From Patescibacteria group bacterium (GTDB lineage Bacteria; Patescibacteriota; Microgenomatia; 0-14-0-10-38-17): a stretch of 64,000 bases of DNA. Below, in pieces: positions 4,576 to 50,850 of the stretch; within the stretch, counting starts at the first letter, position 1, and the number at the start of each line of letters is the position of its first letter. Under the pieces are notes generated by a model. That model was not told where the DNA came from. It searched no databases and was given only the letters and a program-made list of their open reading frames with translations. The stretch covers positions 143,437 to 207,436 of the forward strand of contig JBMNNJ010000001.1 of assembly GCA_050953885.1 (NCBI GenBank), in the 5' to 3' direction. The translations under genes and the position numbers were made by a program.

Positions 4576-4680
4576 TGACGAAAGTCAGAATCTGGCCACA
4601 ATTACAAATGACTAATTACCAATTACCAATTACTTATTACTTATTACCTATTACTTATTATCAATTATGCTAAAATCTAA
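4557..4680. repeat. Single family-A hairpin (catcctgacgaaagtcagaatc) followed by a degenerate TTACYWA heptamer array
   Basis: Sequence identity to the H1 module. The heptamer array is the reverse complement of the GTAACT minisatellite seen at 24055. Confidence 0.6.
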
Positions 4681-9038: not shown

Positions 9039-9180
9039 TTCAGTAAAGATACTCTTTTATATCTTTACTGAAATAGTACTTAAACTATTCCCTTTTGTCA
9101 AGCGGCTTATTTACTGCCTATCCGGCAGGCAGGTCAGCAAGGACGGATAAACAGTCCCGCGCCAGTATTCTTGTTATCGG

Positions 9181-9236
9181 CATGATTTCATGATTTAATG
9201 ATCTTGTGTTCTTGTGATTTAATGATTTAATGATCC
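9181..9236 (+). promoter_or_regulatory. Three direct copies of TGATTTAATGAT just upstream of the GT4 gene
   Basis: catgatttcatgatttaatgat...tgatttaatgatttaatgat seen directly. Position fits an operator or promoter element. Confidence 0.3.
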
Positions 9237-12567: not shown

Positions 12568-12572
12568 AGATT

Positions 12573-13595: not shown

Positions 13596-14568
13596 TAAAT
13601 CTGCAATAACAGTATTAAATTGGAACGGTAAAAAATTCCTTAAAGATTGTTTGTCTGCTGTTTACGAACAAACAGAAAAGAACTTTGAGGTTTATTTCGT
13701 TGATAATGGTTCAACTGATGGATCTATAGAATTTGTTAAAAATAACTTTCCTAAAACAAAAATCGTCAGCTTGGACAAAAATTATGGTTTTGCTAAAGGG
13801 ACTAACGAAGGGATAAAGGAAGCATTCAAAGATAAAAAAGTAAAATATATTATTTGTTTAAATAATGACACGATTGTTAGTAAAAATTGGCTAAAAGAAT
13901 TGGTAAATACAGCACAAAAAGACAATAAGATCGGCGCTGTTTGTAGTAAATCTTATTTTAAAGACGGCAAAACTATTCAAAACGCCGGGCTTATTTATAC
14001 CCCCGCAATCGGAATAAATAAGGTGGGTGGAATTTCTTTGGGATACGGTTTTGCTGATAAGGAAGCGCCAGAATTATCTAAAGAAATTGAAATTTTTGCT
14101 CCTGGAGGTATAGCTCCATTGTATAGGCGCGACGTTTTAGAAAAAATATACCAAAGAGACGGTGAAATTTTTGATGAGGACTTCTTTGCCTATGCCGAAG
14201 ATCTAGATCTTGGTTTTAGAATTAGAAAACTGGGATATAAAAGTGTTTTATCGCCCAAGGCAACCCTTATCCATTTACATTCACAAACTGGCGGTGTGGC
14301 CTCGCCCTTTAAGGCATTTTACTCGGAAAGGAACTCTATTTTGACAGCAATTAAGAATTTATCATTGAAAGATTTGCTGCTTTTCCCTTTACGAAACATT
14401 GCGTTAAAAATATCTTATTTTTTCAAAAAACATGAATCGGTGGAAAGTTTAAAAAAGGAGGTTGGTTTTATTAAAATGTTTTTGATTGTTATAAAAGCTC
14501 ATTTATCAGCAATCGTATTAACCCCTAAAATGTTTGTAAAAAGAGCAAAGATAAAATACAAAAAATGA
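13582..14568 (+). CDS. GT2 glycosyltransferase
   Basis: ITVLNWNGKKFL...VYFVDNGSTDGS and a DLDLGFR region. Confidence 0.8.
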   Translation: MNKNNKSAITVLNWNGKKFLKDCLSAVYEQTEKNFEVYFVDNGSTDGSIEFVKNNFPKTKIVSLDKNYGFAKGTNEGIKEAFKDKKVKYIICLNNDTIVSKNWLKELVNTAQKDNKIGAVCSKSYFKDGKTIQNAGLIYTPAIGINKVGGISLGYGFADKEAPELSKEIEIFAPGGIAPLYRRDVLEKIYQRDGEIFDEDFFAYAEDLDLGFRIRKLGYKSVLSPKATLIHLHSQTGGVASPFKAFYSERNSILTAIKNLSLKDLLLFPLRNIALKISYFFKKHESVESLKKEVGFIKMFLIVIKAHLSAIVLTPKMFVKRAKIKYKK

Positions 14569-15233
14569 AGCAAAAAATCCCTCTAATTAGTATTGTTGTT
14601 TTGAACTGGAACGGTTTGCTTTTTTTGAAGGAGACTATCCCACCACTTTTAGATATTGACTATCCCAATTATGAAGTTATTGTTGTGGATAATGGCTCAA
14701 CCGATAAAAGCGTAAAATTTTTAAAAAAATTCAAAAAAATAAAAATTATTAAAAATAAAGAAAATTTGGGTTATTCAAAGGGGAAAAATATTGGCATAGG
14801 TCTGGCGAAAGGAGAATATATTCTTTCTTTGGATAATGACATTTTAATAAAAGACAAATATCTTCTAGGAAAATTATTAAAAATGTATAAAAGCAGAAAG
14901 GGGGTGGGTTTCCTTCAAATTCCTCTATTAGATAAAAACAAAACAAAAACACACTACTATGGCGTCTATTACTCCGTATATGGATTAAACATGCACAGAA
15001 AAGAAGTCGATATTAAGAAAATTACAGAGAATAAAGATAGTTTAGTAAAAATTGTTGGGCCAACCGGTGGTTTTTTCTTTATTAAGAAAGACGCTTGGGA
15101 AGATATTGGTGGCTTTGATGAATCGCAAGGGTTTCATATAGATGATGTTGACATTGGTCCTAGATCGATGATTTTTGATTATGAAAACTTTCTATATACA
15201 AAAAGTTATGCCATTCATTTAGAGATAAATTAA
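14565..15233 (+). CDS. GT2 glycosyltransferase (short)
   Basis: ISIVVLNWNGLLFL...VIVVDNGSTDKS. 222 aa, so possibly C-terminally truncated. Confidence 0.7.
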   Translation: MKQKIPLISIVVLNWNGLLFLKETIPPLLDIDYPNYEVIVVDNGSTDKSVKFLKKFKKIKIIKNKENLGYSKGKNIGIGLAKGEYILSLDNDILIKDKYLLGKLLKMYKSRKGVGFLQIPLLDKNKTKTHYYGVYYSVYGLNMHRKEVDIKKITENKDSLVKIVGPTGGFFFIKKDAWEDIGGFDESQGFHIDDVDIGPRSMIFDYENFLYTKSYAIHLEIN

Positions 15234-15268
15234 ACCGCCAAAATTTGAATAGTTTAAGTTTTAGAAAG

Positions 15269-16555
15269 ATGATTAACAAAGTTAGGCTTGAAGCAAGAAA
15301 AATAATCCAAAAAAATAAAACCCTTTTTGAGAATTTTATTTCCTTATCGCTTTTACAGGGGTTGGATTATATTTTCCCCCTTATTACTCTTCCCTATTTA
15401 GTCCGGGTTTTGGGACCAGAAAAATATGGCCTAACTGCCTTTGCCGCCGCTTTAGTCGGCTATTTTATGATTATTACCAACTATGGTTTTAATTATTCAG
15501 CCGTAAGAGATATTGCCATCACCAGAGAAGACGAGAAAAAAACATCAACGGTTTTTATGTCGGTAATGATTATAAAGATTCTTTTGTTCTTGTTAAGCCT
15601 GATTATTTTTTTAGGAATAGTTCTTTCTTTCCAAAAGTTCAGGACAGAGCTTCCCCTTTTTTTATTTTCCTTTTTGGCGATTATTGGCAACATTGCTTTT
15701 CCGGTTTGGTTTTTCCAAGGAATGGAAAAAATGAAATACATTACCATCTTTAATATTGTCGCCAAAGCTTTTTTCACCCTTTTGGTTTTTTTGGTTATTA
15801 AATCGGCTAGTGATTATATTTATGTTCCCCTTTTAAACTCTTTGGGCATAATTGTTTCGGGTTTATGCTCTTTATTTTTTATTTTTAAAAATTTTAAGAT
15901 AAGGTTTTTGCTTCCCTCACGGGAGGAAATAAAAAAACAATTTTTAGGCGGCTGGCACTTTTTCGTTTCCAGCTTTTTTATTAATCTTTATACCAACAAT
16001 ACCAACACGTTTCTTTTAGGGCTTCTTACCAACAATGAAATGGTGGGTTATTTCTCCGGCGCGGAGAAAATTATTAGAGCCTTCACGGGCCTTATCGCTC
16101 CCGTTTCTCAAGCAGTTTATCCCCACCTTAGCAGGTTATTTATTCAAGCCAAAGAGGCAAGCTTAAAGTTTATTAGAAAATTAGAGTTTCTTTTGGGAGG
16201 GATTTTCCTTGCTGTTTCTTTATCTTTATTTCTTTTTGCTTCTCCAATTGTTAAAATTATTCTCGGAGAAGAGTATTTGCCCTCAATTTTAATAATAAGA
16301 ATTATGGCGATTTTACCGTTTTTAATTACCATGAGCAACGTTTTTGGAGTACAAGGTCTTTTTGCTTTTGGTATTTCCCAAAAAGCTTCTAAAATTTTTA
16401 TTACCGCTTCATTTCTTCACATTCCTATGTTCATATTATTAACAAAACTCTTTTCAATTAACGGTAGCGCTCTTGCGGTAGTTTTAACAGAAAGTTTAGT
16501 TACAATCCTTTGTTTTCTTTATTTTAAAAATTTTTTGAGAAAAGAGCAGACTTAG
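15269..16555 (+). CDS. Wzx-like oligosaccharide flippase (MOP family)
   Basis: More than 10 TM helices. LVRVLGPEKYGLTAF region typical of polysaccharide-biosynthesis (PST) proteins. Confidence 0.65.
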   Translation: MINKVRLEARKIIQKNKTLFENFISLSLLQGLDYIFPLITLPYLVRVLGPEKYGLTAFAAALVGYFMIITNYGFNYSAVRDIAITREDEKKTSTVFMSVMIIKILLFLLSLIIFLGIVLSFQKFRTELPLFLFSFLAIIGNIAFPVWFFQGMEKMKYITIFNIVAKAFFTLLVFLVIKSASDYIYVPLLNSLGIIVSGLCSLFFIFKNFKIRFLLPSREEIKKQFLGGWHFFVSSFFINLYTNNTNTFLLGLLTNNEMVGYFSGAEKIIRAFTGLIAPVSQAVYPHLSRLFIQAKEASLKFIRKLEFLLGGIFLAVSLSLFLFASPIVKIILGEEYLPSILIIRIMAILPFLITMSNVFGVQGLFAFGISQKASKIFITASFLHIPMFILLTKLFSINGSALAVVLTESLVTILCFLYFKNFLRKEQT

Positions 16556-16577
16556 GCAGTTTTTAAATAAAAAATTC

Positions 16578-17663
16578 ATGAAATACGATTATTTAATCGT
16601 TGGAGCCGGTTTTTCGGGGGCAGTTTTAGCCGAAAGATTGTCTAGTGTTGGTAAAAAAGTTTTGGTGGTTGAAAAAAGAAACCATATTGGTGGAAACTGT
16701 TATGATTTTTTTGATAAAAATGGCGTTTTGGTTCATAAATATGGGCCTCATTACTTTAGAACCAATTCTGACCAAGTGGTTGAATATCTTTCCCAATTTA
16801 CCGATTGGTTGCCTCAAGAATTTAAAGTAAGGGCTTTTGTTAAAAAAGAATTATACCCTTTGCCTATAAATAGAGACACTCTTAACGCTTTTTTTAGGGT
16901 TAATTTAAAAACAGAAGAAGAAGCAGAAAAGTTTTTGGAAGAAAAAAAAGAGAAAATTAAAAACCCCCAAAACGCCGAAGAGCAAGTTTTATCCTTAGCC
17001 GGAAGAGAAATTTATGAGGCTTTTTTTAAAAACTATACTATTAAGCAATGGGGTATCCACCCCAAAAATCTTGACGCTTCGGTTACCGCCAGAATTCCCA
17101 TTAGAACCAACGCCAACGATTGTTATTTTAACGATAAATTTCAGGCAATGCCAAAAGAAGGCTACACTAAGATTTTTGAAAAAATGTTCGAGAAGTGCAA
17201 GGTTCTTTTAGAAACCGACTATCGAGAAATAAAAAATAAAATTTCTTATCAAAACATTATTTACACGGGGCCAATAGACGCTTTTTTTAATTATAAATAT
17301 GGTAAATTACCTTATAGAAGTCTGAAAATTAAATTTGAAAACTATAAAAAAGAATTTTATCAAGATTGGGCGCAAATTAACTACCCCAACGATTATAAAT
17401 TTACGAGGATTGTCGAGATTAAGCATGTTACAAAACAAAAAATACCTTGTACAACCATAAGCAAAGAATACCCAACTTGGGAAGGCGAACCATATTATCC
17501 TGTTCCCAACCCAAATAATGAAAAAATATATCAAAAATACGAAAGGGAAGCCCAAAAAATAAGAAATGTTTATTTTATCGGAAGACTGGCTCAATATAGG
17601 TATTTGAATATGGATCAGGTGATAAAAAACGCTTTAGAATTTTTTGAAGAAATGAAAAAATAA
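16578..17663 (+). CDS. glf: UDP-galactopyranose mutase
   Basis: MKYDYLIVGAGFSGAVLAERL FAD-binding fold. HIGGNCYD and GPHYFRTN motifs. 361 aa. Confidence 0.9.
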   Translation: MKYDYLIVGAGFSGAVLAERLSSVGKKVLVVEKRNHIGGNCYDFFDKNGVLVHKYGPHYFRTNSDQVVEYLSQFTDWLPQEFKVRAFVKKELYPLPINRDTLNAFFRVNLKTEEEAEKFLEEKKEKIKNPQNAEEQVLSLAGREIYEAFFKNYTIKQWGIHPKNLDASVTARIPIRTNANDCYFNDKFQAMPKEGYTKIFEKMFEKCKVLLETDYREIKNKISYQNIIYTGPIDAFFNYKYGKLPYRSLKIKFENYKKEFYQDWAQINYPNDYKFTRIVEIKHVTKQKIPCTTISKEYPTWEGEPYYPVPNPNNEKIYQKYEREAQKIRNVYFIGRLAQYRYLNMDQVIKNALEFFEEMKK

Positions 17664-17667
17664 ACGA

Positions 17668-18498
17668 ATGAGCATAATAGAAAAATTTTTATCATTGCTT
17701 TTTACATTGTTGACCAACCCCAAGATCTTAGTAGTAAAAACAATGAGGCCTTTATTTTTTTTGCCCTTTACCCTAAGGCTTAAGTTTGATGCCGTTAGCC
17801 GCCCACACTACGCTTACTGTCTTTTTCAAGCAGCAAAAGAGGCAAAGGCCTTAGGAATAAATAGAATAAGTGCTATAGAATTTGGTGTGGCTGGTGGGCA
17901 GGGAATAATGGCGATGGAAAAATTATCCAGCGAAATAGAAAAAATTACGAAGGTAAAAATTGATATTTACGGTTTTGATCTAGAAAGAGGCTTACCTAAA
18001 CCTAAAGATTTTCGTGATTTACCCTATGTTTGGAAATCGGGATTTTATAAAATGAATTACAAAAAATTATCTGAATGTTTAACTAAGGCCAAGCTTATCT
18101 TAGGAGACGTGAAAGAAACGACTCCTAAGTTTATCAAAAAGAACATTGCCCCAATAGGATTTATTGCCTTTGATTTAGATTATTATTCTTCAACAAGAGA
18201 GGCTTTTAAGATTTTTGATGCGAACAGGGAGAAATTACTGCCAAGGGTTTTTTGCTATTTTGACGACACTATTGGCCCAGATGAAGAGCTTCATTCAAGT
18301 TATACAGGAGAGCTTCTGGCTATTAAAGAATTTAACAGAAAAAATAAGAGTAAAAAGATTTGTAAAATTAACGGGCTTATTTATAAAAGGAAAGTTCCAA
18401 AAGGGTGGAATGAACAGGTCTATATATTACACTTATTTAATCACCCTTTGTATACTGAATACATTTATCCAGGTAATGATAGGCAATTAATAATTTGA
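17668..18498 (+). CDS. Hypothetical protein, possible TylF/MycF-like class I SAM methyltransferase
   Basis: IEFGVAGGQGIMAME (G-rich motif). FDLDYYSST acidic motif. Weak. Confidence 0.35.
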   Translation: MSIIEKFLSLLFTLLTNPKILVVKTMRPLFFLPFTLRLKFDAVSRPHYAYCLFQAAKEAKALGINRISAIEFGVAGGQGIMAMEKLSSEIEKITKVKIDIYGFDLERGLPKPKDFRDLPYVWKSGFYKMNYKKLSECLTKAKLILGDVKETTPKFIKKNIAPIGFIAFDLDYYSSTREAFKIFDANREKLLPRVFCYFDDTIGPDEELHSSYTGELLAIKEFNRKNKSKKICKINGLIYKRKVPKGWNEQVYILHLFNHPLYTEYIYPGNDRQLII

Positions 18499-18508
18499 AA
18501 AAATAAAA

Positions 18509-19399
18509 ATGCCTAAAAAAGAAAAAATCGCCGCCAATGTGGTTACTTACAACAGAAAAGATCTTTTAAGAGAATGCCTTAATTCTCTTTTAGCGCAGAC
18601 AAGAAAACCGAATTCAATCATCATCGTTGATAATAATTCTACTGATGGAACAAAAGAAATGGTAGAAAAAGAGTTTTTAGATAATCCGATTTTTGATTAT
18701 GTGAGACTAAACGAGAACACCGGTAGCGCGGGAGGCCAATATACCGGCATCAAAAGAGCCTACGAAAAAGGTTTTGACTGGGTTTGGTGTATGGATGATG
18801 ATGCGACACCAAAAAAACAATGTTTAAAGAATTTGCTTGTTTCTAAAGAAAGCTGTAAAAAGGCAAAAGTATTAGTTCCAGTTAAGATTAGCATAAACGG
18901 TAATGAACAAGGGTCTCATGTGGGCGTTTTTTCTAGCCCCTTCTTGCGTATTAAGCCAGCAAATAGGTCTTCCAAATTAATTGAATTTAGTTCGTTTGTT
19001 GGTCCATTATTCAGTAAAGATGTTATACGAGAAATTGGTTTACCAAACAAAGACCTATTTATTTGGCATGATGATTATGAGTATTTTTTAAGAATAAAAA
19101 CAGCCGGATTTAAAACTTATCTTGTTGATAGTGCGGTTGTCATTCATAACGACGACTATGGGAGACAAAAGAAGAAGCAATTGGGTTGGAAGAATTATTA
19201 TGGTTGGAGAAATAAATTCTATATTAAAAAGAAATATTGTAAGCCTTTTTGGTTTTATTTGTATTTAGTGGTTTTTTTATTATGGCAAACTTCTGAAATA
19301 ATTTTTGTTTATCATCAACCAAAATATATAGAAACCTTGAGTAAAGCTCTTCTTAATGGCCTAAATGGTAAGCTGGGCTTTATTGGTTTTGATATTTAA
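18509..19399 (+). CDS. GT2 glycosyltransferase (candidate galactofuranosyltransferase, next to glf)
   Basis: ANVVTYNRKDLL...IIIVDNNSTDGT...WCMDDDA (DxD). Confidence 0.7.
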   Translation: MPKKEKIAANVVTYNRKDLLRECLNSLLAQTRKPNSIIIVDNNSTDGTKEMVEKEFLDNPIFDYVRLNENTGSAGGQYTGIKRAYEKGFDWVWCMDDDATPKKQCLKNLLVSKESCKKAKVLVPVKISINGNEQGSHVGVFSSPFLRIKPANRSSKLIEFSSFVGPLFSKDVIREIGLPNKDLFIWHDDYEYFLRIKTAGFKTYLVDSAVVIHNDDYGRQKKKQLGWKNYYGWRNKFYIKKKYCKPFWFYLYLVVFLLWQTSEIIFVYHQPKYIETLSKALLNGLNGKLGFIGFDI

Positions 19400-22388
19400 C
19401 TTCATAAAGGGTGAATTTATTGATAGTGGCAAAATTTCTGTAATTTTCTTTTATGGTTTGATTTATTTCGCTATTGTTCTGATCAAAGCTTTCTTCTAAA
19501 AAAGTCCATGAAGTTATTCTGCCAGATCCTACAACATACCTAGGTCTTTGTTCCTGAATGTTTACTGCTATTTCTTTTTTCGAAAAACAAAATTTGGCAT
19601 TATCACCCTCTTGGCAGAAGAAAGGAACCCCCGTATCCCTATAAACCCAGGGAGAAGTTATCTTTAATATATTAGTAGGTCTTACTTCCGCCGCCAGCGC
19701 CGTATCGGCAGTGAAAATTAAATCTGTTTCCGATGTTTTTTTGTTTACGAACTCAACAACCTCCTGTAAGTCTTGGTAGCTATAGACAACGGCATTATCT
19801 ACTTTTTTTGTTTGAGAAATAATATTGCTAAAAAGTAGACTTGCAAAAAGCAGATAAGCAAAAGGTTTCGCTGTTTTAGCTTTTGTCAGGAATGGTGACA
19901 AAAAAGATATTACAAGGGGAAATAAAAACGACATCATGGCGGGGCTATGATTAATATCATTTGGTGAGCTACCACCGCTTAACAACCGAACATAGTAGGC
20001 AAAATAAGAAAAATTAAGAATAATAGATAGAAAAATTATATTTTCGTCTTTGATTGCTTCATTCTTTTTTTTCAAGATTTCCCCCTTCAACAGGAGAAAA
20101 AGCGCTAATAAAAATGTTAACAGGGCAATAATATGACAATAAAAGTTATAGTAAACAAATTTTTCTGTACCGACAGATATTAGTGAAAGATAAAATAAAT
20201 AAATAAATAATAAAATTAATGACGATTTTTCTAATAATCTCTTTCTAGAAATTAAAAATATTAAAAAGAAAATTAATATAGAAAAATAGCCGTTTTCTAA
20301 TACTGTGTTTGGCCAAAAAGAGGATATGAAACTATTTTTAAATAATTGAGATGTCACTGCTATATAGAGAAAAAGGCCAACGGATGAAAACATCCAGCTT
20401 AGATAAACTATGCTTTTAATTTTAAATTTTTTTGAGATCGTTTTGACAACGGGGATTGTTACAAGTAAAACAAGAGAAATTTTTTGATATAGGATTACAT
20501 CGTTCCAAACATAGGTAATTAAGTTGTTAATAGGGGATCCTAACAGATTAAATAAAAGAATTATTAAACCTGAAGACAGAAAGTAAAAAATAAAATAAAG
20601 TAATATTTTCGAAAATCGTTCTTCGTCCTTAAGATATCTAACTGCTTCTATATAAAAAAGAGAAAGAAAAATTAACAATCCGCCCTTATAAGTAAATGTA
20701 CTTATTGCAACGATAATGGACGATATAAAAAATGCCGACGGAATATTTTTTTTAAGGTATAAGAAGAATAGTGAAACAGAAGTAATTGAAAATATTTGAA
20801 AAAATACTTTATCTAATCCAAGGTTAATGGGGTTAATTATTTTGGAAAAGATTGAAGATATCGCAAGAAATAAAAAAGCACTTTTTTTATCAGTTGCTTT
20901 TTTTATTATTAGATAATTTAGGGCTAAAAAAAGAATTTGGTAAAAGACGACTAGTGTTCTTTGATTCTTTATGGTTGTTTTTAAGAAAGAAAAAAATGGT
21001 CTTATCATAAGCAAAGAACCGGGTTCTCTAAACCAAAAGTCATCATATAAATTAAGTTCTTCTTTCATCATTCTAATTGCGTATAAGGAGTGTCCCTCGT
21101 CGGAACCAATATCGGCAGTGGTTATTTGAGAAGTTTGATTAGAAATAAAAGTGAGAAAAAGCAAGGCAATAATTATCCAATTGGGCTGTTTCGCCCCCTT
21201 TTTTAGAAAAAATGAAGAAATAAAGAATAAAATTATTAAAAATCCCTCTATGATTATTTTTCGATTTAAGATAGTTAAGTTCAGACACGGTATTATGATA
21301 AGTGCTGCTAATGAAAGATAAGGCATTATTTTTATAATTCTTGTTTTTGTTTTTGTATTCTTAGAAACATAAAAGTAGACAACAGTTTCTAGCGTTAAGA
21401 AAAGAGTAGCAAGACTAGAGAAAGAGAGGCCGTTGTTTATAGACTTACTTACTTTTTTTAGAATATTTTCCCAAATCGATCCGATATTATTTTTCAGCTC
21501 CCCCTTATTGTAAACATACCTTGAATAAAGATAAGGTTGGTTGTTTTTATCAACCGAGGCAAAAACATAAAGGGCGGGGGTTTCTTCGTCGGGTTGCTTT
21601 TTGCCGGCTAATTCTACCAGATAGGTTTTGCTTTCGGATTCTTCAATTATAGGAAAACCAAAGGGGTAAAGATGGCTAGGAGCGGCTTGGTCAAAATAAT
21701 AGGTGTTTTCATAAAACCAGTTCTCGGCACCTTTTTCCTTAATGCGGAAAATGATTTCGGCCGGTTCATAATAGGCGATTTCTTCAAGGGGTTCTTCTTC
21801 GGCCAGATCGTCTTGGCCGATAGGTTGCTCTTTTTGGGTTTCCTGGTCGATTATTTCTTCCTCTATTTCCTCTTCCGGCTTTATCTCTATAATCTCCCCT
21901 TCTTCATTAAAGCCCAAAGCCTTTTCTTGAACCGAGAGTTTAACTCCCATCGTGCCCAAATTATTGGAATCGGCCGTAAATTCTTGGGAAATGAGCGTGT
22001 TTTCCACCAAAGGAACTTCTTTGGCGGCTTTAAAGCTTTTCGGGTGGCTTTCGTAAACCAGTGGCGAGCCGTACTGGAAAATAGCGTAGCCCACCAAAAA
22101 AGTTAGGATTAAGAGGAGATTGACGCCGGTGAGAAGGAGAAATTTCTTGGCGCTTTTAGAATGGGGGAAAAGATAAACTAAAAAAGCGACAATCTGACGC
22201 CAATTAATTAAAGCAACAAAAATAACCAGCCAAAAAGCAGCGCGGTTAAGTTGCGGTTGGCTAATACCTAAAGAAAACGAAAAAAAAGAGGCCAGGCGGG
22301 TAAAAAGCGTTAAAAGAAGTAAAGAGAAGGCAAGAGCATTAAAAAAGCGGCGCAGTTTTGGGAAAAAAGAAGGCTTTTTTAAGTCCAT
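19380..22388 (-). CDS. Very large (about 1000 aa) polytopic membrane protein with ArnT/PMT-like GT-C core and N-terminal acidic extension
   Basis: More than 15 TM segments. DEGHSLYAIRMM loop motif like the other GT-C proteins here. Glu-rich spacer EEEIEEEIIDQETQKEQ in the N-terminal 300 aa. Confidence 0.45.
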   Translation of the reverse strand: MDLKKPSFFPKLRRFFNALAFSLLLLTLFTRLASFFSFSLGISQPQLNRAAFWLVIFVALINWRQIVAFLVYLFPHSKSAKKFLLLTGVNLLLILTFLVGYAIFQYGSPLVYESHPKSFKAAKEVPLVENTLISQEFTADSNNLGTMGVKLSVQEKALGFNEEGEIIEIKPEEEIEEEIIDQETQKEQPIGQDDLAEEEPLEEIAYYEPAEIIFRIKEKGAENWFYENTYYFDQAAPSHLYPFGFPIIEESESKTYLVELAGKKQPDEETPALYVFASVDKNNQPYLYSRYVYNKGELKNNIGSIWENILKKVSKSINNGLSFSSLATLFLTLETVVYFYVSKNTKTKTRIIKIMPYLSLAALIIIPCLNLTILNRKIIIEGFLIILFFISSFFLKKGAKQPNWIIIALLFLTFISNQTSQITTADIGSDEGHSLYAIRMMKEELNLYDDFWFREPGSLLMIRPFFSFLKTTIKNQRTLVVFYQILFLALNYLIIKKATDKKSAFLFLAISSIFSKIINPINLGLDKVFFQIFSITSVSLFFLYLKKNIPSAFFISSIIVAISTFTYKGGLLIFLSLFYIEAVRYLKDEERFSKILLYFIFYFLSSGLIILLFNLLGSPINNLITYVWNDVILYQKISLVLLVTIPVVKTISKKFKIKSIVYLSWMFSSVGLFLYIAVTSQLFKNSFISSFWPNTVLENGYFSILIFFLIFLISRKRLLEKSSLILLFIYLFYLSLISVGTEKFVYYNFYCHIIALLTFLLALFLLLKGEILKKKNEAIKDENIIFLSIILNFSYFAYYVRLLSGGSSPNDINHSPAMMSFLFPLVISFLSPFLTKAKTAKPFAYLLFASLLFSNIISQTKKVDNAVVYSYQDLQEVVEFVNKKTSETDLIFTADTALAAEVRPTNILKITSPWVYRDTGVPFFCQEGDNAKFCFSKKEIAVNIQEQRPRYVVGSGRITSWTFLEESFDQNNSEINQTIKENYRNFATINKFTLYEVKYQNQ

Positions 22389-22454: not shown

Positions 22455-22545
22455 ACTGGTAACTAACGCAGATTCTGACTTTCGTCAGAATGACAGAAAA
22501 GTGCCAGAATGACAATTACGATTATCGTCAAAATGACGGAGCAAG
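22455..22545. repeat. Family-A hairpin repeat block abutting the 3' end of the paralog gene
   Basis: aacgcagattctgactttcgtcagaatgac... The gene stop lies at the repeat boundary. Confidence 0.8.
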
Positions 22546-23151
22546 CTCTCCCGGATCACGGATGGTGAAGGGAAGGCGGTCACTTTCCCGGCCATCATAT
22601 TTTTTAACATACAAGTCGCCTTTAAAAAAACGAGGCGGGTGGGGCTGAACGGCAACAATTTTTTCTTCCCCCCATTCTTTGATTTGAAATTCAAGGTCGT
22701 CAACAAAAACTTTTCCCGGTTGCCAAGCGGGCCCAAAATTTTTGCCTTCAATAATAATTTCCATCCCCACCATTGACCAATTGATCTCTTTTGGCTCACC
22801 CACCGTGGCCCATGAAGAAAGAATTCGGTAAATTTTTGGCTCTTCCTGTAGACGCTGGTAAAAATCAGTATAGACACGGTTAACCACCAAACCCACCAAC
22901 AAGGCGGTGAAAAAAACCGGCCAAAATTTAGCACCAACTTCCCTTGCCCGACGGGAAAAATAGTTAACCGAAAAGACTGCCAAAAAAACCGCCAGAAGCA
23001 AAAAGGTTTTTTGAGACGAGGAAATATGCTTTAAAACCAAAAATTTTTCCGTTAAAAGATATTCGGCGGGAATAATTAAAAGAAAGTAGAAAATAATGGT
23101 TTGGGCAACCACAAGCAGGTTAGGGAGAAGAAATTTTTTAAAAAAAGCCAT
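22528..23151 (-). CDS. Small membrane protein (3 N-terminal TM helices plus C-terminal domain), tandem paralog 1
   Basis: 207 aa, about 90% identical to the 23409..24032 product. Confidence 0.55.
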   Translation of the reverse strand: MAFFKKFLLPNLLVVAQTIIFYFLLIIPAEYLLTEKFLVLKHISSSQKTFLLLAVFLAVFSVNYFSRRAREVGAKFWPVFFTALLVGLVVNRVYTDFYQRLQEEPKIYRILSSWATVGEPKEINWSMVGMEIIIEGKNFGPAWQPGKVFVDDLEFQIKEWGEEKIVAVQPHPPRFFKGDLYVKKYDGRESDRLPFTIRDPGELAPSF

Positions 23152-23225
23152 TGATAAGAAAAGTATAACACTAATCGGGGAACGCGTAACTGGTAACTGG
23201 TAATACGTAATACGTAACTCGTAAC

Positions 23226-23440
23226 TGGTAACTAACGCAGATTCTGACTTTCGTCAGAATGACGGTTAGAGGAAGCACCAGGATGACGACGGTCGCGCCG
23301 TCATTCCGGACTTGATCCGGAATCTGTGCTATTGCCAGAAAACGCAGATTCTGACTTTCGTCAGAATGACGGCTAGGGGAAGCGTCAGAATGACGGTTAC
23401 GATTAGCGTCAGAATGACGGAGCAAGCTCTCCCGGATCAC
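23226..23440. repeat. Family-A composite repeat block between the tandem paralogs
   Basis: Contains the H1, H2 and gtcagaatgacg modules. Confidence 0.85.
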
Positions 23441-24032
23441 GGATGGTGAAAGGGAGGCGGCTACTTTCCCGACCATTATATTTTTGAACATACAAGCCGC
23501 CTTTAAAAAAATGGGGCGGGTGGGGCTGAATAACAATAATTTTCTCTTCTCCCCATTCTTTGATTTGAAATTCAAGGCCGTCAACAAAAACTTTTCCCGG
23601 TTGCCAAGCGGGCCCAAAATTTTTACCGTCAATAATAATTTCCATTCCCACCATTGACCAATCAATCTCTTTTGGCTCACCCACCGTGGCCCATGAAGAA
23701 AGAATTCGGTAAATTTTTGGCTCTTCCTGTAGACGCTGGTAAAAATCAGTATAGACACGGTTAACCACCAAACCCACCAACAAGGCGGTGAAAAAAACCG
23801 GCCAAAATTTGGCGCCAATTTTCCTTACCCGGCGGGAAAAATAGTTAACCAAAAAGACCGTTAAAAAAACCGCCAAAAGCAAAAAAGTTTTTTGAGACGA
23901 GGGAATATGCTTTAAAACCAAAAATTTTTCCGTTAAAAGATATTCGGCAGGAATAATTAAAAGAAAGTAGAAAATAATGGTTTGGGCAACCACAAGCAGG
24001 TTGGGGAGAAGAAATTTTTTAAAAGAAAACAT
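23409..24032 (-). CDS. Small membrane protein, tandem paralog 2
   Basis: 207 aa. Same architecture and same repeat-abutted 3' end as paralog 1. Confidence 0.55.
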   Translation of the reverse strand: MFSFKKFLLPNLLVVAQTIIFYFLLIIPAEYLLTEKFLVLKHIPSSQKTFLLLAVFLTVFLVNYFSRRVRKIGAKFWPVFFTALLVGLVVNRVYTDFYQRLQEEPKIYRILSSWATVGEPKEIDWSMVGMEIIIDGKNFGPAWQPGKVFVDGLEFQIKEWGEEKIIVIQPHPPHFFKGGLYVQKYNGRESSRLPFTIRDPGELAPSF

Positions 24033-24054: not shown

Positions 24055-24215
24055 TCGGGGAATACGTAACTAGTAACTGGTAATACATAACTAGTAACTG
24101 GTAATACGTAACTAGTAACTCGTAATACGTAACTAGTAACTGGTAATTCGTAACTCGTAACTGGTAATTCGTAACTAGTAACTGGTAATACGTAACTCGT
24201 AACTGGTAACTAACG
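24055..24215. repeat. GTAACT-type minisatellite (7-bp units NGTAAYW with 21-bp higher-order period, about 8 periods)
   Basis: gtaactagtaactggtaatac repeated. Shorter arrays at 22430-22455, 23170-23225, 4617-4672 and 50590-50690. Confidence 0.85.
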
Positions 24216-24535
24216 CAGATTCTGACTTTCGTCAGAATGACGGCTAGGGGAAGCGTCAGAATGACAATTACGATTAGCGTCATTCTGAACTTGATTCAGA
24301 ATCTGTTTTAAAAAAAACTAAAACGCAGATTCTGACTTTCGTCAGAATGACAGAAAAGCGGCAGGATGACAACAGTCGTGCCGTCATTCCGGACTTGATC
24401 CGGAATCTGTATTATTGCCAGAAAACGCAGATTCTGGCTTTCGCCAGAATGACAAAAAAACGTCAGAATGACAAAGAAGCATCAGAATGACGGTTAGGGG
24501 AAGCATCAGGATAACGTCCTTATTATCAAGAAGCC
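24215..24535. repeat. Family-A composite repeat array
   Basis: H1, H5 (cattctgaacttgattcagaatc) and H2 modules. Confidence 0.85.
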
Positions 24536-26465: not shown

Positions 26466-26650
26466 AGCAAAGTTAGATCCTGACTTTCGTCAGGATGACA
26501 CTAACCGCCATTCTGAACTTGATTCAGAATCAGTCTTAAAAAAACTAAAACGCAGATTCTGACTTTCGTCAGAATGACAGTTAGGGGAAGCGTCAGAATG
26601 ACAGAAAAACGTCAGAATGACAATTACGATTAGCGTCATCCTGATAAGAA
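26466..26650. repeat. Family-A composite repeat block
   Basis: H1/H5 modules. Nearly identical to 24280-24360 and 29385-29460. Confidence 0.85.
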
Positions 26651-28206: not shown

Positions 28207-28439
28207 CTATTGTTCTCGCCTTAAATTTGGAGTCAGAGTTGATTATTTAAAGTTAAAAGTCAAAATTCAAAAGTCAAAAGTGCAAGTCAAAATTAAAAAG
28301 TAACGTCACCCCTGAATTAGATTCAGGATCAGGCTCTGAGCTTGATTCAGAATTTTGCGTGAAATGCCTGAAATGTATGAGACGTTTGAAACGTAAAAAC
28401 ATTAAACGATTCAGGCGATTCAAACCTCAAGCGTTTCAA

Positions 28440-28880
28440 GCATCAAGCTTTAAGGCCGATCCTGACTTTCGTCAGAATGACGGTTAGGGGAAGCGTCAGG
28501 ATGACGACAGCCGTGCCGTCATTCCGGACTTGTCCCGCCATAGCGGGATCCGCCTCAGGCAGAATCCGGAATTTATGTTATTGTAAGAAAACGCAGATCC
28601 TGACTTTCGTCAGGATGACGGTTAGGGGAAGCGTCAGGATGACGATAACCGTGCCGTCATTCCGGACTTGATCCGGAATCTGTGCTATTACCAGAAAACG
28701 CAGATTCTGACTTTCGTCAGAATGACAAAAAAAACGTCAGAATGACGATAACCGTGCCGTCATTCCGGACTTGATCCGGAATCTGTGTTATTACCAGAAA
28801 ACGCAGATCCTGACTTTCGTCAGGATGACAAAAAAAACGTTAGGATGACGATTAGTGAAAGCGTCAGGATGACGGTTACG
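28440..28880. repeat. About 4 tandem units (about 110 bp each) of the family-A composite hairpin repeat
   Basis: Each unit is gatcctgactttcgtcaggatgac-ggttaggggaagc-gtcaggatgacg-...-gtcattccggacttgatccggaatctgtgttattaccagaaaacgca. Unit 1 carries a nested ccgccatagcgggatccgcctcaggc insertion. Confidence 0.9.
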
Positions 28881-29178
28881 GAAATAATTCTGGCCACAAG
28901 TCCTTAAACTCAGGGTTACTTTTTCTAATTAATTCCAACTTCCATTCTCTTCGCCAACTTTTTAGCTGTTTTTCTCTCTTTATCGCTTCTTCTATGTTGT
29001 CAAAAACTTCAAAATAAAGAAGCTTGTTAAGATGATACTTTTTAGTAAAGCCTTCAACTAACTCCTCTTTATGTTGGCTAATCCGATGATAAAAATCGGC
29101 AGTTACTCCAATATAAAGGGTGGGGCGATCGTTACCCATAATATAAACAACAGCTTGCTTTTCCATTTTTAATTTCAA
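28876..29178 (-). CDS. GIY-YIG nuclease family protein (UPF0213/YhbQ-like)
   Basis: VYIMGNDRPTLYIGVTADFYHRISQHK (GIY...YIG). About 95 aa. Confidence 0.8.
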   Translation of the reverse strand: MKLKMEKQAVVYIMGNDRPTLYIGVTADFYHRISQHKEELVEGFTKKYHLNKLLYFEVFDNIEEAIKREKQLKSWRREWKLELIRKSNPEFKDLWPELFP

Positions 29179-30603: not shown

Positions 30604-30816
30604 GGAAAAAAAATTATTAAACTATTAAATAGCTTAATTACTAAAAATTCAAAATGCAAAAGTCAAAAGTCAAAATTTAAAGTCAAAAGTCAAAAGTTTT
30701 TGTTTCACTTTTTAATTTTAACTTTTGAATTCCCTATGGGGGAAGAAATATGCACCTAAAAAATAAACGAGAAAGCAGAGAAAATCACCAATCGATTTTT
30801 TCTATTTTACCATTTT

Positions 30817-32867: not shown

Positions 32868-33010
32868 ACAAATTCAAATCTCAAATCTCAAAACTCAAAA
32901 CTACAACTCAAAACTTAAATCTAAAAAAAACAACTTTAAGCTTTAAAAAGTTTTAACATTTACCATGTAGTTTTGAGTTTTAACATTTGAGTTTTAACAT
33001 TTTAGCTTGC
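32868..33010. repeat. Family-B MITE-like element (acaactcaaaac...ttttaacatttaccatgtagttttgagtttt)
   Basis: Four copies in the window: 32868-33010, 40590-40760, 50856-51015 and 54660-54745. Imperfect terminal inverted repeats caaaactcaaaac/gttttgagtttt. Confidence 0.75.
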
Positions 33011-33071: not shown

Positions 33072-34247
33072 ATGAAGCAATCTAAACCCATTTTATCAAT
33101 CATCATCGTCTCTTATAACACCAAGGAACTGTTGAAAGAATGCCTTGATTCCGTGGCTAAATCATTAGCCAGCGCTAATTTTAAAAGCAACCAAGAAAAG
33201 ATCCTGAATCAAGTTCAGAATGACGCTAATCGTAACCGTCATCCTAACTCCTCTCGCCGTCATCCTGACGATCCGCCAGCTGGCGGACAGGATCTGCCCT
33301 TGTCATTAACACAGATTCCGGATCAAGTCTGGAATGACAGTTTCCAAGTTCGTTACCCTGACTCTTCTCACCGTCATCCTGATGATCCGCCAGTTGGCGG
33401 ACAGGATCTACCCTTGGCCGAAATCATCGTTGTTGACAATAATTCCCGCGACGATTCGGTAGAAATGCTTGAAAATTTAAAATTGAAACTTGAAAATTCA
33501 ATGAAAATTGAAAATTTAAAATTGAAAATTATTATTAATAACGATAATCTTGGCTTTGCCAAGGCTAATAATCAGGGGATAAAAATAGCCGAAGGAAAAT
33601 ATGTCCTGCTTTTAAACTCCGATACTAAAATTGTTGAAGATAATTTTTTCCCAAAAATTATTAGTTTTTTGGAGAAAAATTCTGCGGTGGGAATTTTAGG
33701 ACCAAAACTAATTTGGGAAGACGGTAAAATTCAACCCTCGGGTGGTTATTTTCCTACTTTAGGTCGCCTCTTTGCCTGGGCTTTTTTCTTGGACGATTTA
33801 CCGGGCCTTTCAAAAATAATTAAAGCCTACCATCCCCACCCTAAGGACTGTCAAAAACCTCAAAGGCAAGACTGGGTTACCGGCGCCTGTTTCTGGGTGA
33901 AAAAGGAAGTTTTTGATAAAATAGGAATGCTTGACGAGGATTTTTTTATGTATGTGGAAGAACTGGAATTTTGTTTTCGCGCTAAAAAAGCGGGGTTTGA
34001 GGTGATTTATTATCCTCAGGCGAAACTTATTCATTACGGCGGGAAAAGCGGCACCGCTTTTAATACTGTTATAGGTGAATTTAAAGGCTTAAAACTTTTT
34101 TACCAGAAACACCAGCCGGCCTGGCAAAAACCGTTCCTAAATTTCCTCCTTAAGGCGGCCGCTTTTAACCGTTTTTTTTTCTTAGGAATTTTGGGGGGAA
34201 ATAAAGAAAAAAAAGAAATTTATCGAAAAGTTTTGGAAAGCAAGTAG
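33072..34247 (+). CDS. GT2 glycosyltransferase carrying an in-frame insertion of about 75 aa derived from family-A hairpin repeats
   Basis: N-terminus ILSIIIVSYNTKELL and EIIVVDNNSRDDS are split by NRNRHPNSSRRHPDDPPAGGQDLPLSLTQIPDQVWNDSFQVRYPDSSHRHPDDPPVGGQDLP. The DNA at 33196-33418 consists of the H5, H1+H3 and H2 repeat modules. Confidence 0.8.
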   Translation: MKQSKPILSIIIVSYNTKELLKECLDSVAKSLASANFKSNQEKILNQVQNDANRNRHPNSSRRHPDDPPAGGQDLPLSLTQIPDQVWNDSFQVRYPDSSHRHPDDPPVGGQDLPLAEIIVVDNNSRDDSVEMLENLKLKLENSMKIENLKLKIIINNDNLGFAKANNQGIKIAEGKYVLLLNSDTKIVEDNFFPKIISFLEKNSAVGILGPKLIWEDGKIQPSGGYFPTLGRLFAWAFFLDDLPGLSKIIKAYHPHPKDCQKPQRQDWVTGACFWVKKEVFDKIGMLDEDFFMYVEELEFCFRAKKAGFEVIYYPQAKLIHYGGKSGTAFNTVIGEFKGLKLFYQKHQPAWQKPFLNFLLKAAAFNRFFFLGILGGNKEKKEIYRKVLESK

Positions 34248-39317: not shown

Positions 39318-40514
39318 ATGAAACAATCGCCTGTTTTACTTTCCATCATCATCGTCTCTTATAATACCCGGGAGCTTTTGGAAAAATGCCTTGATTCCGT
39401 GATCAAATCATTAGCCGGCTCTAATCTTAAAAGCAACCAAGAAAAGATCCTGAATCAAGTTCAGGATGAGGCTAATCGCAACCGTCATTCTGACTCCTCT
39501 GGTCGTCATCCTGACCCCGCCAAGGGTGGGGCTAACCGTCATCCTGACGAAAGTCAGGATCTCTCCTTGTCATTAACACAGATTCCGGATCAAGTCCGGA
39601 ATGACAGTTTCCAAGTTCGTTACCCTGACTCTTCTCACCGTCATCCTGACGATCCGCCAGCTGGCGGACAGGATCTGCCCGCCGAAATCATCGTTGTTGA
39701 TAATAATTCCCGCGACGATTCGGTAGAAATGCTTGAAAATTTAAAATTGAAACTTAAAAATTCAATGAAAATTGAAAATTTAAAATTGAAAATTATTGTT
39801 AATAACGATAACACTGGCTTTGCCAAGGCTAATAATCAGGGGATAAAAATAGCCGAAGGAAAATATGTCCTCTTTTTGAATCCGGATACGATTGTTTTAC
39901 CCGAAACACTTCCTTTTATGCTTGAATTTATGAAAAAAAACCCCGCGGTAGGCGTGGCCACCTGTCGGGTAGAGCTTGTTGATGGAAAGCTGGACGAGGC
40001 TTGCCATCGGGGTTTTCCCACTCCCTGGAATGCCTTTTGCCATTTTTCGGGTTTGGAAAAACTTTTCCCCCATTCCCGACTTTTTGCCGGTTATTATTTA
40101 GGATATTTGGATCTTAACACCACCCACGAAATCGATAGTTGCGTCGGCGCGTTTATGTTAGTCCCTCGCCTGGTGGGCGAAAAAATCGGCTGGTGGGATG
40201 AAGATTATTTTTGGTATGGCGAGGACATTGATTTTTGTTATCGAGTGAAAAAGGCGGGTTTTAAGGTGATGTTTGTACCAAAAGTAAAAATCATCCATTA
40301 TAAAGGCGCCTCATCGGGAATTAAAAAAACCAAAAGCAAAGCCGACTTTAAAACACAAGAGAAGGCCATGCTTGCTTCAACCCAGGCGATGCGGATTTTT
40401 TACCAAAAACATTACCGGGGAAAATATCCTAAGCCCGTTGAGAAACTCGTTTTTTGGGGAATTAGTTTGCTTGAAAAAGCAAGGGTGAGAAAAATAAAAA
40501 AACAAAATGGCTAA
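39318..40514 (+). CDS. GT2 glycosyltransferase, paralog of 33072..34247, with in-frame repeat-derived insertion (about 80 aa)
   Basis: LSIIIVSYNTRELL ... NRNRHSDSSGRHPDPAKGGANRHPDESQDLSLSLTQIPDQVRNDSFQVRYPDSSHRHPDDPPAGGQDLP ... EIIVVDNNSRDDS. The DNA at 39436-39678 is hairpin repeat modules. Confidence 0.8.
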   Translation: MKQSPVLLSIIIVSYNTRELLEKCLDSVIKSLAGSNLKSNQEKILNQVQDEANRNRHSDSSGRHPDPAKGGANRHPDESQDLSLSLTQIPDQVRNDSFQVRYPDSSHRHPDDPPAGGQDLPAEIIVVDNNSRDDSVEMLENLKLKLKNSMKIENLKLKIIVNNDNTGFAKANNQGIKIAEGKYVLFLNPDTIVLPETLPFMLEFMKKNPAVGVATCRVELVDGKLDEACHRGFPTPWNAFCHFSGLEKLFPHSRLFAGYYLGYLDLNTTHEIDSCVGAFMLVPRLVGEKIGWWDEDYFWYGEDIDFCYRVKKAGFKVMFVPKVKIIHYKGASSGIKKTKSKADFKTQEKAMLASTQAMRIFYQKHYRGKYPKPVEKLVFWGISLLEKARVRKIKKQNG

Positions 40515-40759: not shown

Positions 40760-40960
40760 TGCTCCGCCAGCTGGCGGATTCATCAGAATGACGGCCACGA
40801 TTAGCATCATTCTGAACTTGATTCAGAATCGTTATTAATCTCTGAAGAACGCAGATCCTGACTTTCGTCAGAGCCTGTCCTGAATTTAATTCAGGAATGA
40901 CAGCTACGGGGATGATCCTGTCCGCCAGCTGGCGGATTAAATTTTAACTTTTGACTTTTT
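40760..40960. repeat. Family-A repeat block (H3 tccgccagctggcgga, H5, H1, H6 cctgaatttaattcagg)
   Basis: Seen directly. Confidence 0.85.
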
Positions 40961-43729: not shown

Positions 43730-43930
43730 GGTTTTGTCCGCCAGCTGGCGGATCGTCAGAATGACGGCTACAATTATTGTCATTCTGAACTTGTCCCGCC
43801 ATAACGGGATCCGCATCGGGCGGGATCCAGAATCAAAAACAGATTCTGACTTTCGTCAGAATGACAATGACTGTCATTTATCCGTCGGTGGGCAAATTCG
43901 TCAGAATGACAGTTACGTTCAGCCCGCAGC
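43730..43930. repeat. Family-A repeat block (H3, H5 with nested H4, H1)
   Basis: ORF 43704..43943 is a translation of this repeat. Confidence 0.85.
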
Positions 43931-48239: not shown

Positions 48240-48355
48240 CGAAAACCGTCATTCTGAACTTGATTCAGAATCAGGATAGATCCTGACTTTCGTCAGGATG
48301 ACGGTTACGGAAATGATTCTGTCCGCCGGCTGGCGGATCGTCAGAATGACGAATT
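48240..48355. repeat. Family-A repeat block (H5, H1, H3)
   Basis: Seen directly. Confidence 0.8.
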
Positions 48356-50694: not shown

Positions 50695-50850
50695 CTCAGC
50701 TAGCGGATTCGTCAGAACCTGTCCTGAATTTAATTCAGGAATGACGACCACGATTAGCGTCATTCTGAACTTGATTCAGAATCAGTTAGATCCTGACTTT
50801 CGTCAGGATGACGGCTACAGGGATGATCCTATCCGCCAGCTGGCGAATTA
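50695..50850. repeat. Family-A repeat block, preceded by a GTAAC-type inverted-repeat hairpin (50590-50690)
   Basis: gtaattcgtaactggtaatcagtaactcgtaatt ... aattacgagttacgcattacggattactga. Confidence 0.8.

Follow-up and report, generated by a model that had tools for sequence, protein, structure and literature searches.

In-frame CGTC-tagged REP clusters in two paralogous GT2 glycosyltransferase genes of a Patescibacteria genome

Two glycosyltransferase genes carry repeat DNA in frame

We analysed a 64-kb stretch (64,000 nt, the window) of contig JBMNNJ010000001.1 from a Patescibacteria group bacterium, in which two paralogous family-2 glycosyltransferase (GT2) genes, GT2_A and GT2_B, carry clusters of CGTC-tagged repetitive extragenic palindromic (REP) hairpins in frame within their coding sequences. 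The window has the character of a Candidate Phyla Radiation (CPR) genome of the Microgenomates/Shapirobacteria, with the best GT2 matches coming from Candidatus Shapirobacteria and Microgenomates, and contig JAGPNC010000006.1 of the Shapirobacteria isolate Gw_SlDig_bin_51 (the JAGPNC01 genome) is syntenic with 30.8–37.3 kb of it. The two genes and the features within them are listed below; the heptamer arrays were delineated with Tandem Repeats Finder (TRF), and both open reading frames (ORFs) are uninterrupted.

33072..34247, + strand: GT2_A (wA), GT-A fold family-2 glycosyltransferase, 391 aa; PF00535 at 75.9 bits (cut-off 23.3)
33100..33620, + strand: gene-conversion tract shared with GT2_B (counterpart ~39346–39884), ~520 nt, from sliding-window identity
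33196..33418, + strand: in-frame CGTC-REP cluster A; hairpins 33201–33225 and 33315–33339, nested hairpins 33272–33287 and 33386–33401
33469..33530, + strand: in-frame imperfect TTGAAAA array of ~9 copies in GT2_A, encoding ENLKLKLENSMKIENLKLKI
39318..40514, + strand: GT2_B (wB), paralogous GT2 glycosyltransferase, 398 aa; PF00535 at 88.7 bits (cut-off 23.3)
39436..39678, + strand: in-frame CGTC-REP cluster B; hairpins 39447–39471, 39537–39560 and 39582–39606, nested hairpin 39653–39668
39733..39794, + strand: in-frame heptamer array in GT2_B, encoding ENLKLKLENSMKIENLKLKI

The original prediction, made from the letters alone, had proposed that REP-like hairpin DNA lies open and in frame in both genes. 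Both parts hold, and the coordinates then given were accurate to ~6 nt. Each insert measures ~225–240 nt and lies between beta1/alpha1 and the DxD strand; cluster A encodes roughly ILNQVQND...RHPDDPPAGGQDLP...IPDQVWND...RHPDDPPVGGQDLP. By alignment, the genic inserts are collinear with the intergenic arrays of the window across about two array units, and the four hairpin modules first described have 23, 9, 9, and 14 matches in the window, against ≤ 0.03 expected from shuffled sequence. As RNA, clusters A and B fold with z-scores of −5.8 and −4.6, respectively.

The two copies differ by the 12- and 33-nt module differences previously described and by a further 3-nt TTG indel at the 3' edge of the insert, which had gone unmentioned. 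The 33 nt are present in B (CCCGCCAAGGGTGGGGCTAAC plus CGTCATCCTGAC), and the 12 nt in A, where a nested TCCGCCAGCTGGCGGA hairpin stands in place of AAGT in the loop. A protein search with the 79-aa insert peptide returned six short matches only, all to GT2 fragments or translated intergenic arrays, and so offered no sign that other protein families commonly contain the peptide. An intein, an intron, and translational bypass were considered and rejected, as the frame is open, no intron family occurs in the window at Rfam gathering scores, and the peptide has no Pfam match.

The repeats belong to the CGTC-tagged REP class

Hairpins were searched under a strict definition ([CT]GTC or CCTC tag, AT plus a 6-nt stem, a 4–7 nt loop, and at most one stem mismatch). 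The window holds 36 such hairpins against a shuffle mean of 0.34, tagged CGTC (23), TGTC (12), or CCTC (1), and 31 of the 36 have no stem mismatch. Their stems are 8 bp long and start with AT (ATCCTGAC, ATTCTGAC, ATTCCGGA, and ATYCTGAA), their loops are GAAA or CTTGA, and neighbouring hairpins alternate in strand, producing head-to-head and tail-to-tail dimers. Five of the 36 lie inside the two GT2 genes and the remainder outside long ORFs or at an ORF stop codon, as do all copies of the four modules first described other than those in the GT2 genes. Besides those around the nuclease gene treated below, the intergenic clusters, ~10 in all, include:

40763..40936, strand unassigned: REP cluster just 3' of GT2_B
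~1–300, 23241–23420, 24219–24454, 26477–26579, 43737–43866, 48247–48351, and 50722–50847: other intergenic REP clusters

In tag, stem, loop, copy number, and inverted dimers, these hairpins match the definition of CGTC-tagged REPs given in the relevant passages of Di Nocera, De Gregorio and Rocco 2013 (PMC3733652), which calls for a stem of 8–9 bp with A-T at its first two positions and a loop of 4–5 nt. They share with the CGTC-1 and CGTC-2 classes described there the 8-bp AT stem, the GAAA/CTTGA loops, the high copy number, the mostly intergenic location, and the head-to-head or tail-to-tail arrangement, as well as occasional intragenic clusters in frame. They depart from those REPs in several respects: the host is a member of the CPR/Patescibacteria, a group from which those passages name no host; the unpaired tail in the window is CTG, CTA, or CTT, rather than the consensus CCA; and window hairpins sit nested within one another's loops. 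Identical copies of the 27-mer CGTCATCCTGACGAAAGTCAGGATCTG are found in Sphingomonas, Thalassobaculum, and Oceanisphaera, in a Sphingobacteriaceae metagenome-assembled genome (MAG), in an Acidimicrobiales MAG, and in the Shapirobacteria genome. Our literature search for REPs in Patescibacteria found no paper.

Nesting is also seen in JAGPNC01, where in two genes (L011 460–1638 and L013 5133–6296) the IPDQVRND hairpin holds another hairpin in its loop (IPDPASPAGGQVRND); judging from these sequences, REP hairpins appear to insert into one another's loops.

The repeats had been labelled REP/MITE-like (MITE, miniature inverted-repeat transposable element), of which the REP part stands. By eye, the hairpins are the only terminal inverted repeats that the inserts show, and no direct repeat is visible at their borders (AAGAAAAG|ATCCTG ... 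GATCTGCCC|GCCGAA), although no formal search for target-site duplications was made; "REP" therefore fits better than "MITE". Pfam was run on 30 ORFs, about half of those in the window, comprising the glycan cluster and most ORFs adjoining REP arrays, and found no insertion sequence and no transposase family among them. These 30 are glycan-biosynthesis or housekeeping genes, and a GIY-YIG gene is the only nuclease found inside the arrays.

No Rfam family reached its gathering score for the repeats, and the sub-threshold matches (microRNA models, and CsrB, whose 28.9 bits come from repeated CAGGATGA and fall short of the gathering score of 71) were rejected as chance-like. The CsrB/RsmB match stems from 28588–28929 (+), where the strand opposite the CGTC tag shows repeated CGUCAGGAUGACG hairpins with GGA in the loop; it is probably due to chance, though the motif resembles CsrA-binding sites.

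The inserts occupy an alpha-to-beta connection of the GT-A fold

The proposal that the insert sits in a loop of a GT-A enzyme is borne out by a split Pfam match, an AlphaFold2 model, and Foldseek. Because the PF00535 match begins only at profile position 23 in GT2_A (residue 111) and 27 in GT2_B (residue 121), the insert separates beta1/alpha1 from the DxD strand. Insert-free homologues, as anticipated, do exist: most of the 120 best homologues are ~300–310 aa long, cover ~70% of the query, and lack the insert, and in the alignment just a handful of residues separate alpha1 from the EIIVVDN strand in P0004, P0005, P0018, P0039, P0078, and P0093. Across 30 aligned homologues, D122, D127, N182, and D184 are invariant.

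The GT2_A model (mean predicted local distance difference test, pLDDT, 80.5; predicted template-modelling score, pTM, 0.78) places strands at residues 8–14, 116–123, and 149–156 and helices at 18–33 and 129–142. Confidence exceeds 90 for most of the GT-A core and falls below 50 at residues 57–102 and 105–112. The best Foldseek matches are GT-A enzymes, namely GalNAc-T2 (E 2.8e-12), WrtF, and RmlT, all with E ~1e-12. The REP insert forms the alpha1–beta2 connection and the heptamer array the alpha2–beta3 connection. In Rossmann-like folds, alpha-to-beta connections lie opposite the ligand-binding edge of the sheet. The REP-encoded segment is a polar, Pro/Gly-rich loop that, according to the model, is probably disordered.

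A second, heptameric repeat block occupies the other connection

The heptamer site is the second variable site in the homologue alignment, where orthologues differ by 6 or 7 codons with the frame kept. Within the window, a pattern search found the TTGAAAA type almost confined to the two GT2 genes, and TRF reports 74–75% matches and 10–11% indels for the genic arrays. The intergenic space holds arrays of the same kind, with a unit that differs from array to array (AAAGTCA, AAAAGTC, AAACTCA, GTAACTA, and CAATTAC):

4599–4667, 23181–23233, 24066–24212, 28249–28301, 30644–30697, and 32870–32927: intergenic heptamer arrays

Heptanucleotide arrays of this sort are reminiscent of the short tandemly repeated repetitive (STRR) sequences of cyanobacteria. 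Other orthologues (P0008–P0010, P0016, P0027, and P0094) carry unrelated repeat peptides in both loops, indicating that both loops are generally insertion-tolerant.

The insert is constrained in frame and little in sequence

The coding frame of the inserts contains no stop codon, whereas each of the other five frames contains 2–10. The intergenic array unit is 103 nt, not a multiple of three, and all six frames carry stops in five of the seven arrays of ~180 nt or longer. Compared with intergenic spacers, the genic spacers between hairpins have one extra base that restores the RHPD frame, and have lost the T-run and the hydrophobic codons of the RFLVI type.

Length at the site varies widely while the genes stay intact. 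In three JAGPNC01 paralogs the linker plus insert at the same position amounts to 20, 84, and 98 aa. GT2_A, P0001, and P0002 are 96–98% identical in their C-terminal 209 residues, yet this segment is 84, 69, and 53 aa long in them, respectively. In their DNA, these last three differ by indels of whole modules, whose ends lie in the short direct repeats CGTCATCCTGAC and CAGGATCT; together with the paralog comparisons, these indels bear out the earlier suggestion that modules are gained and lost in multiples of three. Recombination between these direct repeats would be the mechanism of such gain and loss.

The sequence of the insert is far less conserved than that of the enzyme. Between GT2_B and its orthologue in JAGPNC01 (J11; L011 460..1638), the insert is 31% identical, the N-terminal core 81%, and the C-terminal part 89%, a contrast that fits a tolerated passenger. 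Its composition is 75–80% polar residues plus Pro and Gly. As read from these sequences, variable length, low identity, and polar composition together form the pattern expected of a tolerated passenger whose main constraints are frame and solubility; beyond those constraints the insert would be neutral.

The insert is not recent, as had been entertained, since inserts occur at that same position in the other Shapirobacteria genome and in several metagenome orthologues. Nor does anything indicate the other possibility raised at the time, exaptation of the loop, which would then have a function of its own, for example as a spacer, an interaction segment, or a means of membrane or partner targeting. 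We consider this very unlikely. Several species and four paralog types have the site filled, its composition stays polar and Pro-rich, and P0009, P0016, P0027, and P0094 have unrelated repeat peptides in the same loop, all of which would suit a functional segment. Against these stand a length of 20–98 aa within one genome, the low identity between orthologues set beside that of the enzyme, the many close homologues that do without an insert, and a model that puts the loop on the face away from the active site.

We give scarcely any credence to the idea that the genes are pseudogenes or split genes, or that the repeats have produced an assembly artefact. Repeats do often break or chimerise assemblies, and two contigs with related sequence, L014 and L015, look truncated or chimeric. 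The ORFs of the window are uninterrupted, though, with catalytic and N-terminal residues invariant in 30 homologues, and the same architecture recurs in independent assemblies (the window, JAGPNC01, and European Nucleotide Archive (ENA) contigs L103 and L104). From what is established about the fold, a GT-A enzyme without beta1 would not bind its nucleotide sugar. L014 (ENA ERZ795045, 712 nt, ~2x coverage) holds a GT2 5' fragment followed by REPs that run out of frame into a stop, with a second GT2 5' start ~90 nt later; it may be a truncated duplicate made at the repeats or an assembly chimera and is not used as evidence. L015 turns to high-GC foreign sequence right after the insert, and both contigs, which might have been read as frameshifted or pseudogene alleles, were set aside as possible chimeras.

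Several points weigh against regarding the insert as a tolerated, translated loop. Translation is suggested by the open frame and the conservation of the N-terminal 32 residues, both features of sequence. Protein databases list intact ORFs only, so that the metagenome orthologues are biased towards in-frame variants, and the five genes from the two assembled genomes are the only ones outside this bias. Low pLDDT is no proof of disorder. The genic hairpins are also still nearly perfect, as their fold z-scores indicate, and the hairpin structure itself could be under selection.

The 5' module evolves in concert among paralogs

GT2_A and GT2_B are 83–98% identical at the nucleotide level inside the shared tract (~33100–33620) and ~50% identical beyond ~33620, with a dip to 43–70% within the tract at the swapped hairpin module (~33220–33318). 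Correspondingly, their N-terminal cores are 89% identical in amino acids and their C-terminal parts 35%. The N-terminal cores group by genome, with 89% identity for wA–wB, 93% for J10–J11, and 92% for J10–J13, compared with 78–82% between the window and JAGPNC01 whatever the paralog type. The C-terminal halves instead group by orthology type, forming four types with 84–98% identity within and 32–50% between them. In JAGPNC010000006.1, the gene syntenic to GT2_A (L010 3010–3975) has the same N-terminal module joined to another C-terminal type (46% identity).

From the clustering of N-terminal cores by genome and of C-terminal halves by type, together with the tract itself, it follows that the 5' module, which includes both repeat blocks, evolves in concert by gene conversion. 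The genes, on the evidence of their sequences, are mosaics in which a common 5' module is joined to 3' halves that can be exchanged. This homogenisation is why GT2_A and GT2_B carry nearly the same insert despite unrelated C-terminal halves, and the shared tract argues against independent insertions into the two genes.

The same observations invite a more active role for the repeats. The REP cluster and heptamer array might together act as a recombination or switching device, in which breaks or slippage, possibly caused by the GIY-YIG nuclease, drive gene conversion among the paralogs and swap the 3' halves that would determine acceptor specificity or turn genes on and off, diversifying the surface glycan. 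We judge this unlikely. The two repeat blocks lie roughly in the middle of the conversion tract, the N-terminal modules group by genome and the C-terminal halves by orthology type, GT2_A's syntenic counterpart in JAGPNC01 belongs to another C-terminal type, the genic hairpins are intact, the heptamer unit is not a multiple of three, and a GIY-YIG gene lies in REP arrays 4 kb upstream. Slippage should nevertheless be slow in so imperfect a heptamer array, all five genes of the two genomes are in frame, the sole out-of-frame variant lies on the short and possibly chimeric 2x contig L014, and conversion can proceed without any nuclease.

Our preferred explanation, which we regard as likely, is that a loop open to insertions harbours a tolerated CGTC-REP passenger of long standing, whose frame is maintained by selection acting on the enzyme and which conversion has distributed among the paralogs. 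A CGTC-REP cluster would have entered the alpha1–beta2 connection of an ancestral GT2 glycosyltransferase in this Shapirobacteria lineage. Since the alpha1–beta2 and alpha2–beta3 connections are predicted to lie on the sheet face away from the nucleotide-sugar site, a loop of 20–98 residues could be tolerated there. Selection at the level of the enzyme would then keep the frame, while the spacers between hairpins were reshaped by the extra base and the loss of the T-run and hydrophobic codons. The amino acid sequence of the loop would drift, whole REP modules would come and go by recombination between the direct repeats, and the 5' module, from beta1 to beta4 with both repeat inserts, would be homogenised among paralogs within the genome by gene conversion.

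A GIY-YIG gene is bracketed by CGTC REPs

Upstream of the glycosyltransferase genes, a small nuclease gene is embedded in REP arrays:

28310..28874, − strand: intergenic CGTC-REP array 3' of the GIY-YIG gene; 103-nt unit, 2.8 copies, with half-sites ahead; begins at the stop codon
28876..29178, − strand: stand-alone GIY-YIG nuclease gene, ~96–100 aa; PF01541 at 53.2 bits
29193..29452, − strand: intergenic CGTC-REP array 5' of the GIY-YIG gene, adjoining its start

The nearest 5' hairpin is 15 nt from the listed ORF start at 29178 and ~27 nt from the ATG at ~29166. The closest solved structures to the encoded protein are the UPF0213 proteins 1zg2 and 1ywl, of unknown function and only distantly related.

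Protein similarity was the sole criterion for gathering homologues of this protein. The gene is bracketed, in four independent CPR or metagenome contexts (10-kb loci), by CGTC/TGTC hairpins that are nearly the sole such hairpins of the locus, located ~5–15 nt past the stop downstream and ~6–130 nt before the start upstream. Across 80 further metagenome loci with GC contents of 29–71%, strict hairpins reach 6.48 per kb within 150 nt of the gene versus 0.31 per kb elsewhere. An adjacent hairpin is present at 66 of the 80 loci, being the sole kind in the locus in 41 of those 66, and hairpins occur on both sides of the gene at 36 of 73. Their orientation is inverted, with tails facing the gene (46:13 upstream, 65:23 downstream).

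These hairpins use 43 different stems, the commonest being ATTCCCGC with the tail CCA, and CCA is also the commonest tail overall among the flanking REPs of other genomes (70/147). This stem and tail fit the CGTC-1 stem, loop, and tail features described in PMC3733652. The arrangement is also found in genomes of named species, several of which are listed as CGTC-REP hosts in the same source's account of the class:

Azospirillum lipoferum 4B: GIY-YIG gene located between sufB and sufC and flanked by a REP dimer at either end
Sinorhizobium meliloti: GIY-YIG gene flanked by CCTC-tagged arrays
Neisseria gonorrhoeae: GIY-YIG gene within arrays of CGTC-1-type hairpins (a class equated with Neisseria dRS3, PMC3733652)
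Aeromonas caviae: GIY-YIG gene with a single hairpin at either end and no other strict hairpin in the 5 kb
Novosphingobium aromaticivorans: inverted CGTC hairpins at the GIY-YIG gene, with a stem lacking the AT start
Planktothrix agardhii: TGTCATTCTGAG-type variants around the GIY-YIG gene (degenerate form, cyanobacterium)

The gene and CGTC REPs are physically associated across the CPR, the Alpha-, Beta-, and Gammaproteobacteria, and, in degenerate form, a cyanobacterium. When 13 REP-containing genome loci were searched with the GIY-YIG protein by tblastn, one distant copy was found, ~230 nt from one REP and ~4 kb from the locus-defining REP. Dispersed REPs are thus not generally beside the gene, and the association runs from gene to REP. 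A search for literature joining GIY-YIG with REP, REPIN (paired REP), Rickettsia palindromic element (RPE), or palindromic repeats found nothing relevant in its coverage, which did not extend to subscription journals.

The GIY-YIG gene is a candidate partner of the repeats, and its nuclease may spread them. Three readings of the association are possible: the nuclease may mobilise REPs, may home into tail-to-tail dimers, or may be an enzyme of REP processing that has become domesticated. Tentatively, we propose that CGTC REPs, including dRS3 and, according to PMC3733652, RPE-4 and RPE-6, are the cognate DNA of this GIY-YIG family, and that the gene with its two inward-facing REPs constitutes a REPtron-like unit of ~400 bp. 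Its nuclease might create, copy, or home into the arrays and trigger conversion of the GT2 5' module. In this proposal, both the enzymatic link between the GIY-YIG protein and REPs and its role inside genes are putative.

Relation to known repeat systems

In the passages of PMC3733652 on the superfamily, CGTC-tagged REPs include Neisseria dRS3 and Rickettsia RPE-4 and RPE-6, and no dedicated enzyme is reported for them; the window repeats differ in flanking a GIY-YIG gene. Intragenic GTAG and CGTC REPs are reported there too, with clusters encoding 43–82 aa in Thauera and R. conorii, whereas the intragenic clusters described here reach 98 aa when the short native linker is counted.

RPEs (Ogata et al. 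2000, as cited in PMC10969869 and PMC3733652) are palindromic repeats that lie in frame within housekeeping or metabolic genes. According to these citing accounts, the GT2 inserts resemble them as palindromic repeats in frame in a metabolic gene at a fold-compatible site. An RPE is, by the same accounts, a discrete ~150-bp element with a conserved peptide, whereas the window insert is a modular array whose units are gained, lost, and co-converted between paralogs; moreover, only one gene family is affected in 64 kb. The link to RPE families is solely that PMC3733652 counts RPE-4 and RPE-6 among the CGTC REPs. Since RPEs and intragenic GTAG and CGTC REPs are documented, the GT2 inserts extend a known phenomenon.

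The bracketed GIY-YIG gene resembles the REPIN/REPtron–RAYT system (GTAG REPs and REP-associated tyrosine transposases, RAYTs, of the Y1 type) in that one small nuclease gene is bracketed by an inverted, dispersed REP. It differs from the REPtron in that the flanked gene matches PF01541 (GIY-YIG) and not an HUH/Y1 transposase, and in the CGTC rather than GTAG tag; any mobility would be hypothetical.

Phase-variable simple-sequence repeats are known in surface-glycan glycosyltransferase genes of Neisseria, Haemophilus, and Campylobacter. The heptamer arrays are like these in having a tandem unit that is not a multiple of three within a glycosyltransferase coding sequence, and unlike them in being imperfect and in that the orthologue length variants seen keep the frame.

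Outside the GT2 family, the same CGTC REP lies in the same RHPD...ESQDL frame in an Lhr-like helicase ORF of an Acidimicrobiales MAG (L008 4742–5602, −), just after the WH4 domain (RHSDSAPRRHPDSASRHPDSASRHPDESQDLP), which echoes a published bias towards repair genes. Apparent in-frame REPs in a further locus, L009, lie upstream of the likely true start codon and were not counted.

Other features of the window

Two tandem 207-aa ORFs (22528–23151 and 23409–24032, −) are 91% identical and match no Pfam family, with REP and heptamer arrays between and after them. A 23S rRNA intervening-sequence protein gene (PF05635; 37289–37657, +) stands alone between glycosyltransferase genes, far from any rRNA. 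The region ~9000–21000 has a GC content of 0.25–0.34, compared with 0.39–0.47 in the remaining window, and may be a horizontally acquired part of the glycan cluster.

Implications

Taken at face value, the GT2 inserts extend translated palindromic selfish DNA inside genes to the CPR and to surface-glycan enzymes. They also illustrate cleanly that the GT-A fold has two alpha-to-beta loops tolerant of insertion, and that an N-terminal enzyme module can evolve in concert among paralogs. The source and spread of CGTC-type REPs have been an open question since at least 2013; given the steady bracketing of a small GIY-YIG gene by these REPs in distant phyla, the question of their origin becomes testable with one purified protein and a hairpin oligonucleotide. 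The same bracketing suggests a function for an uncharacterised GIY-YIG family whose closest structures are UPF0213 proteins.

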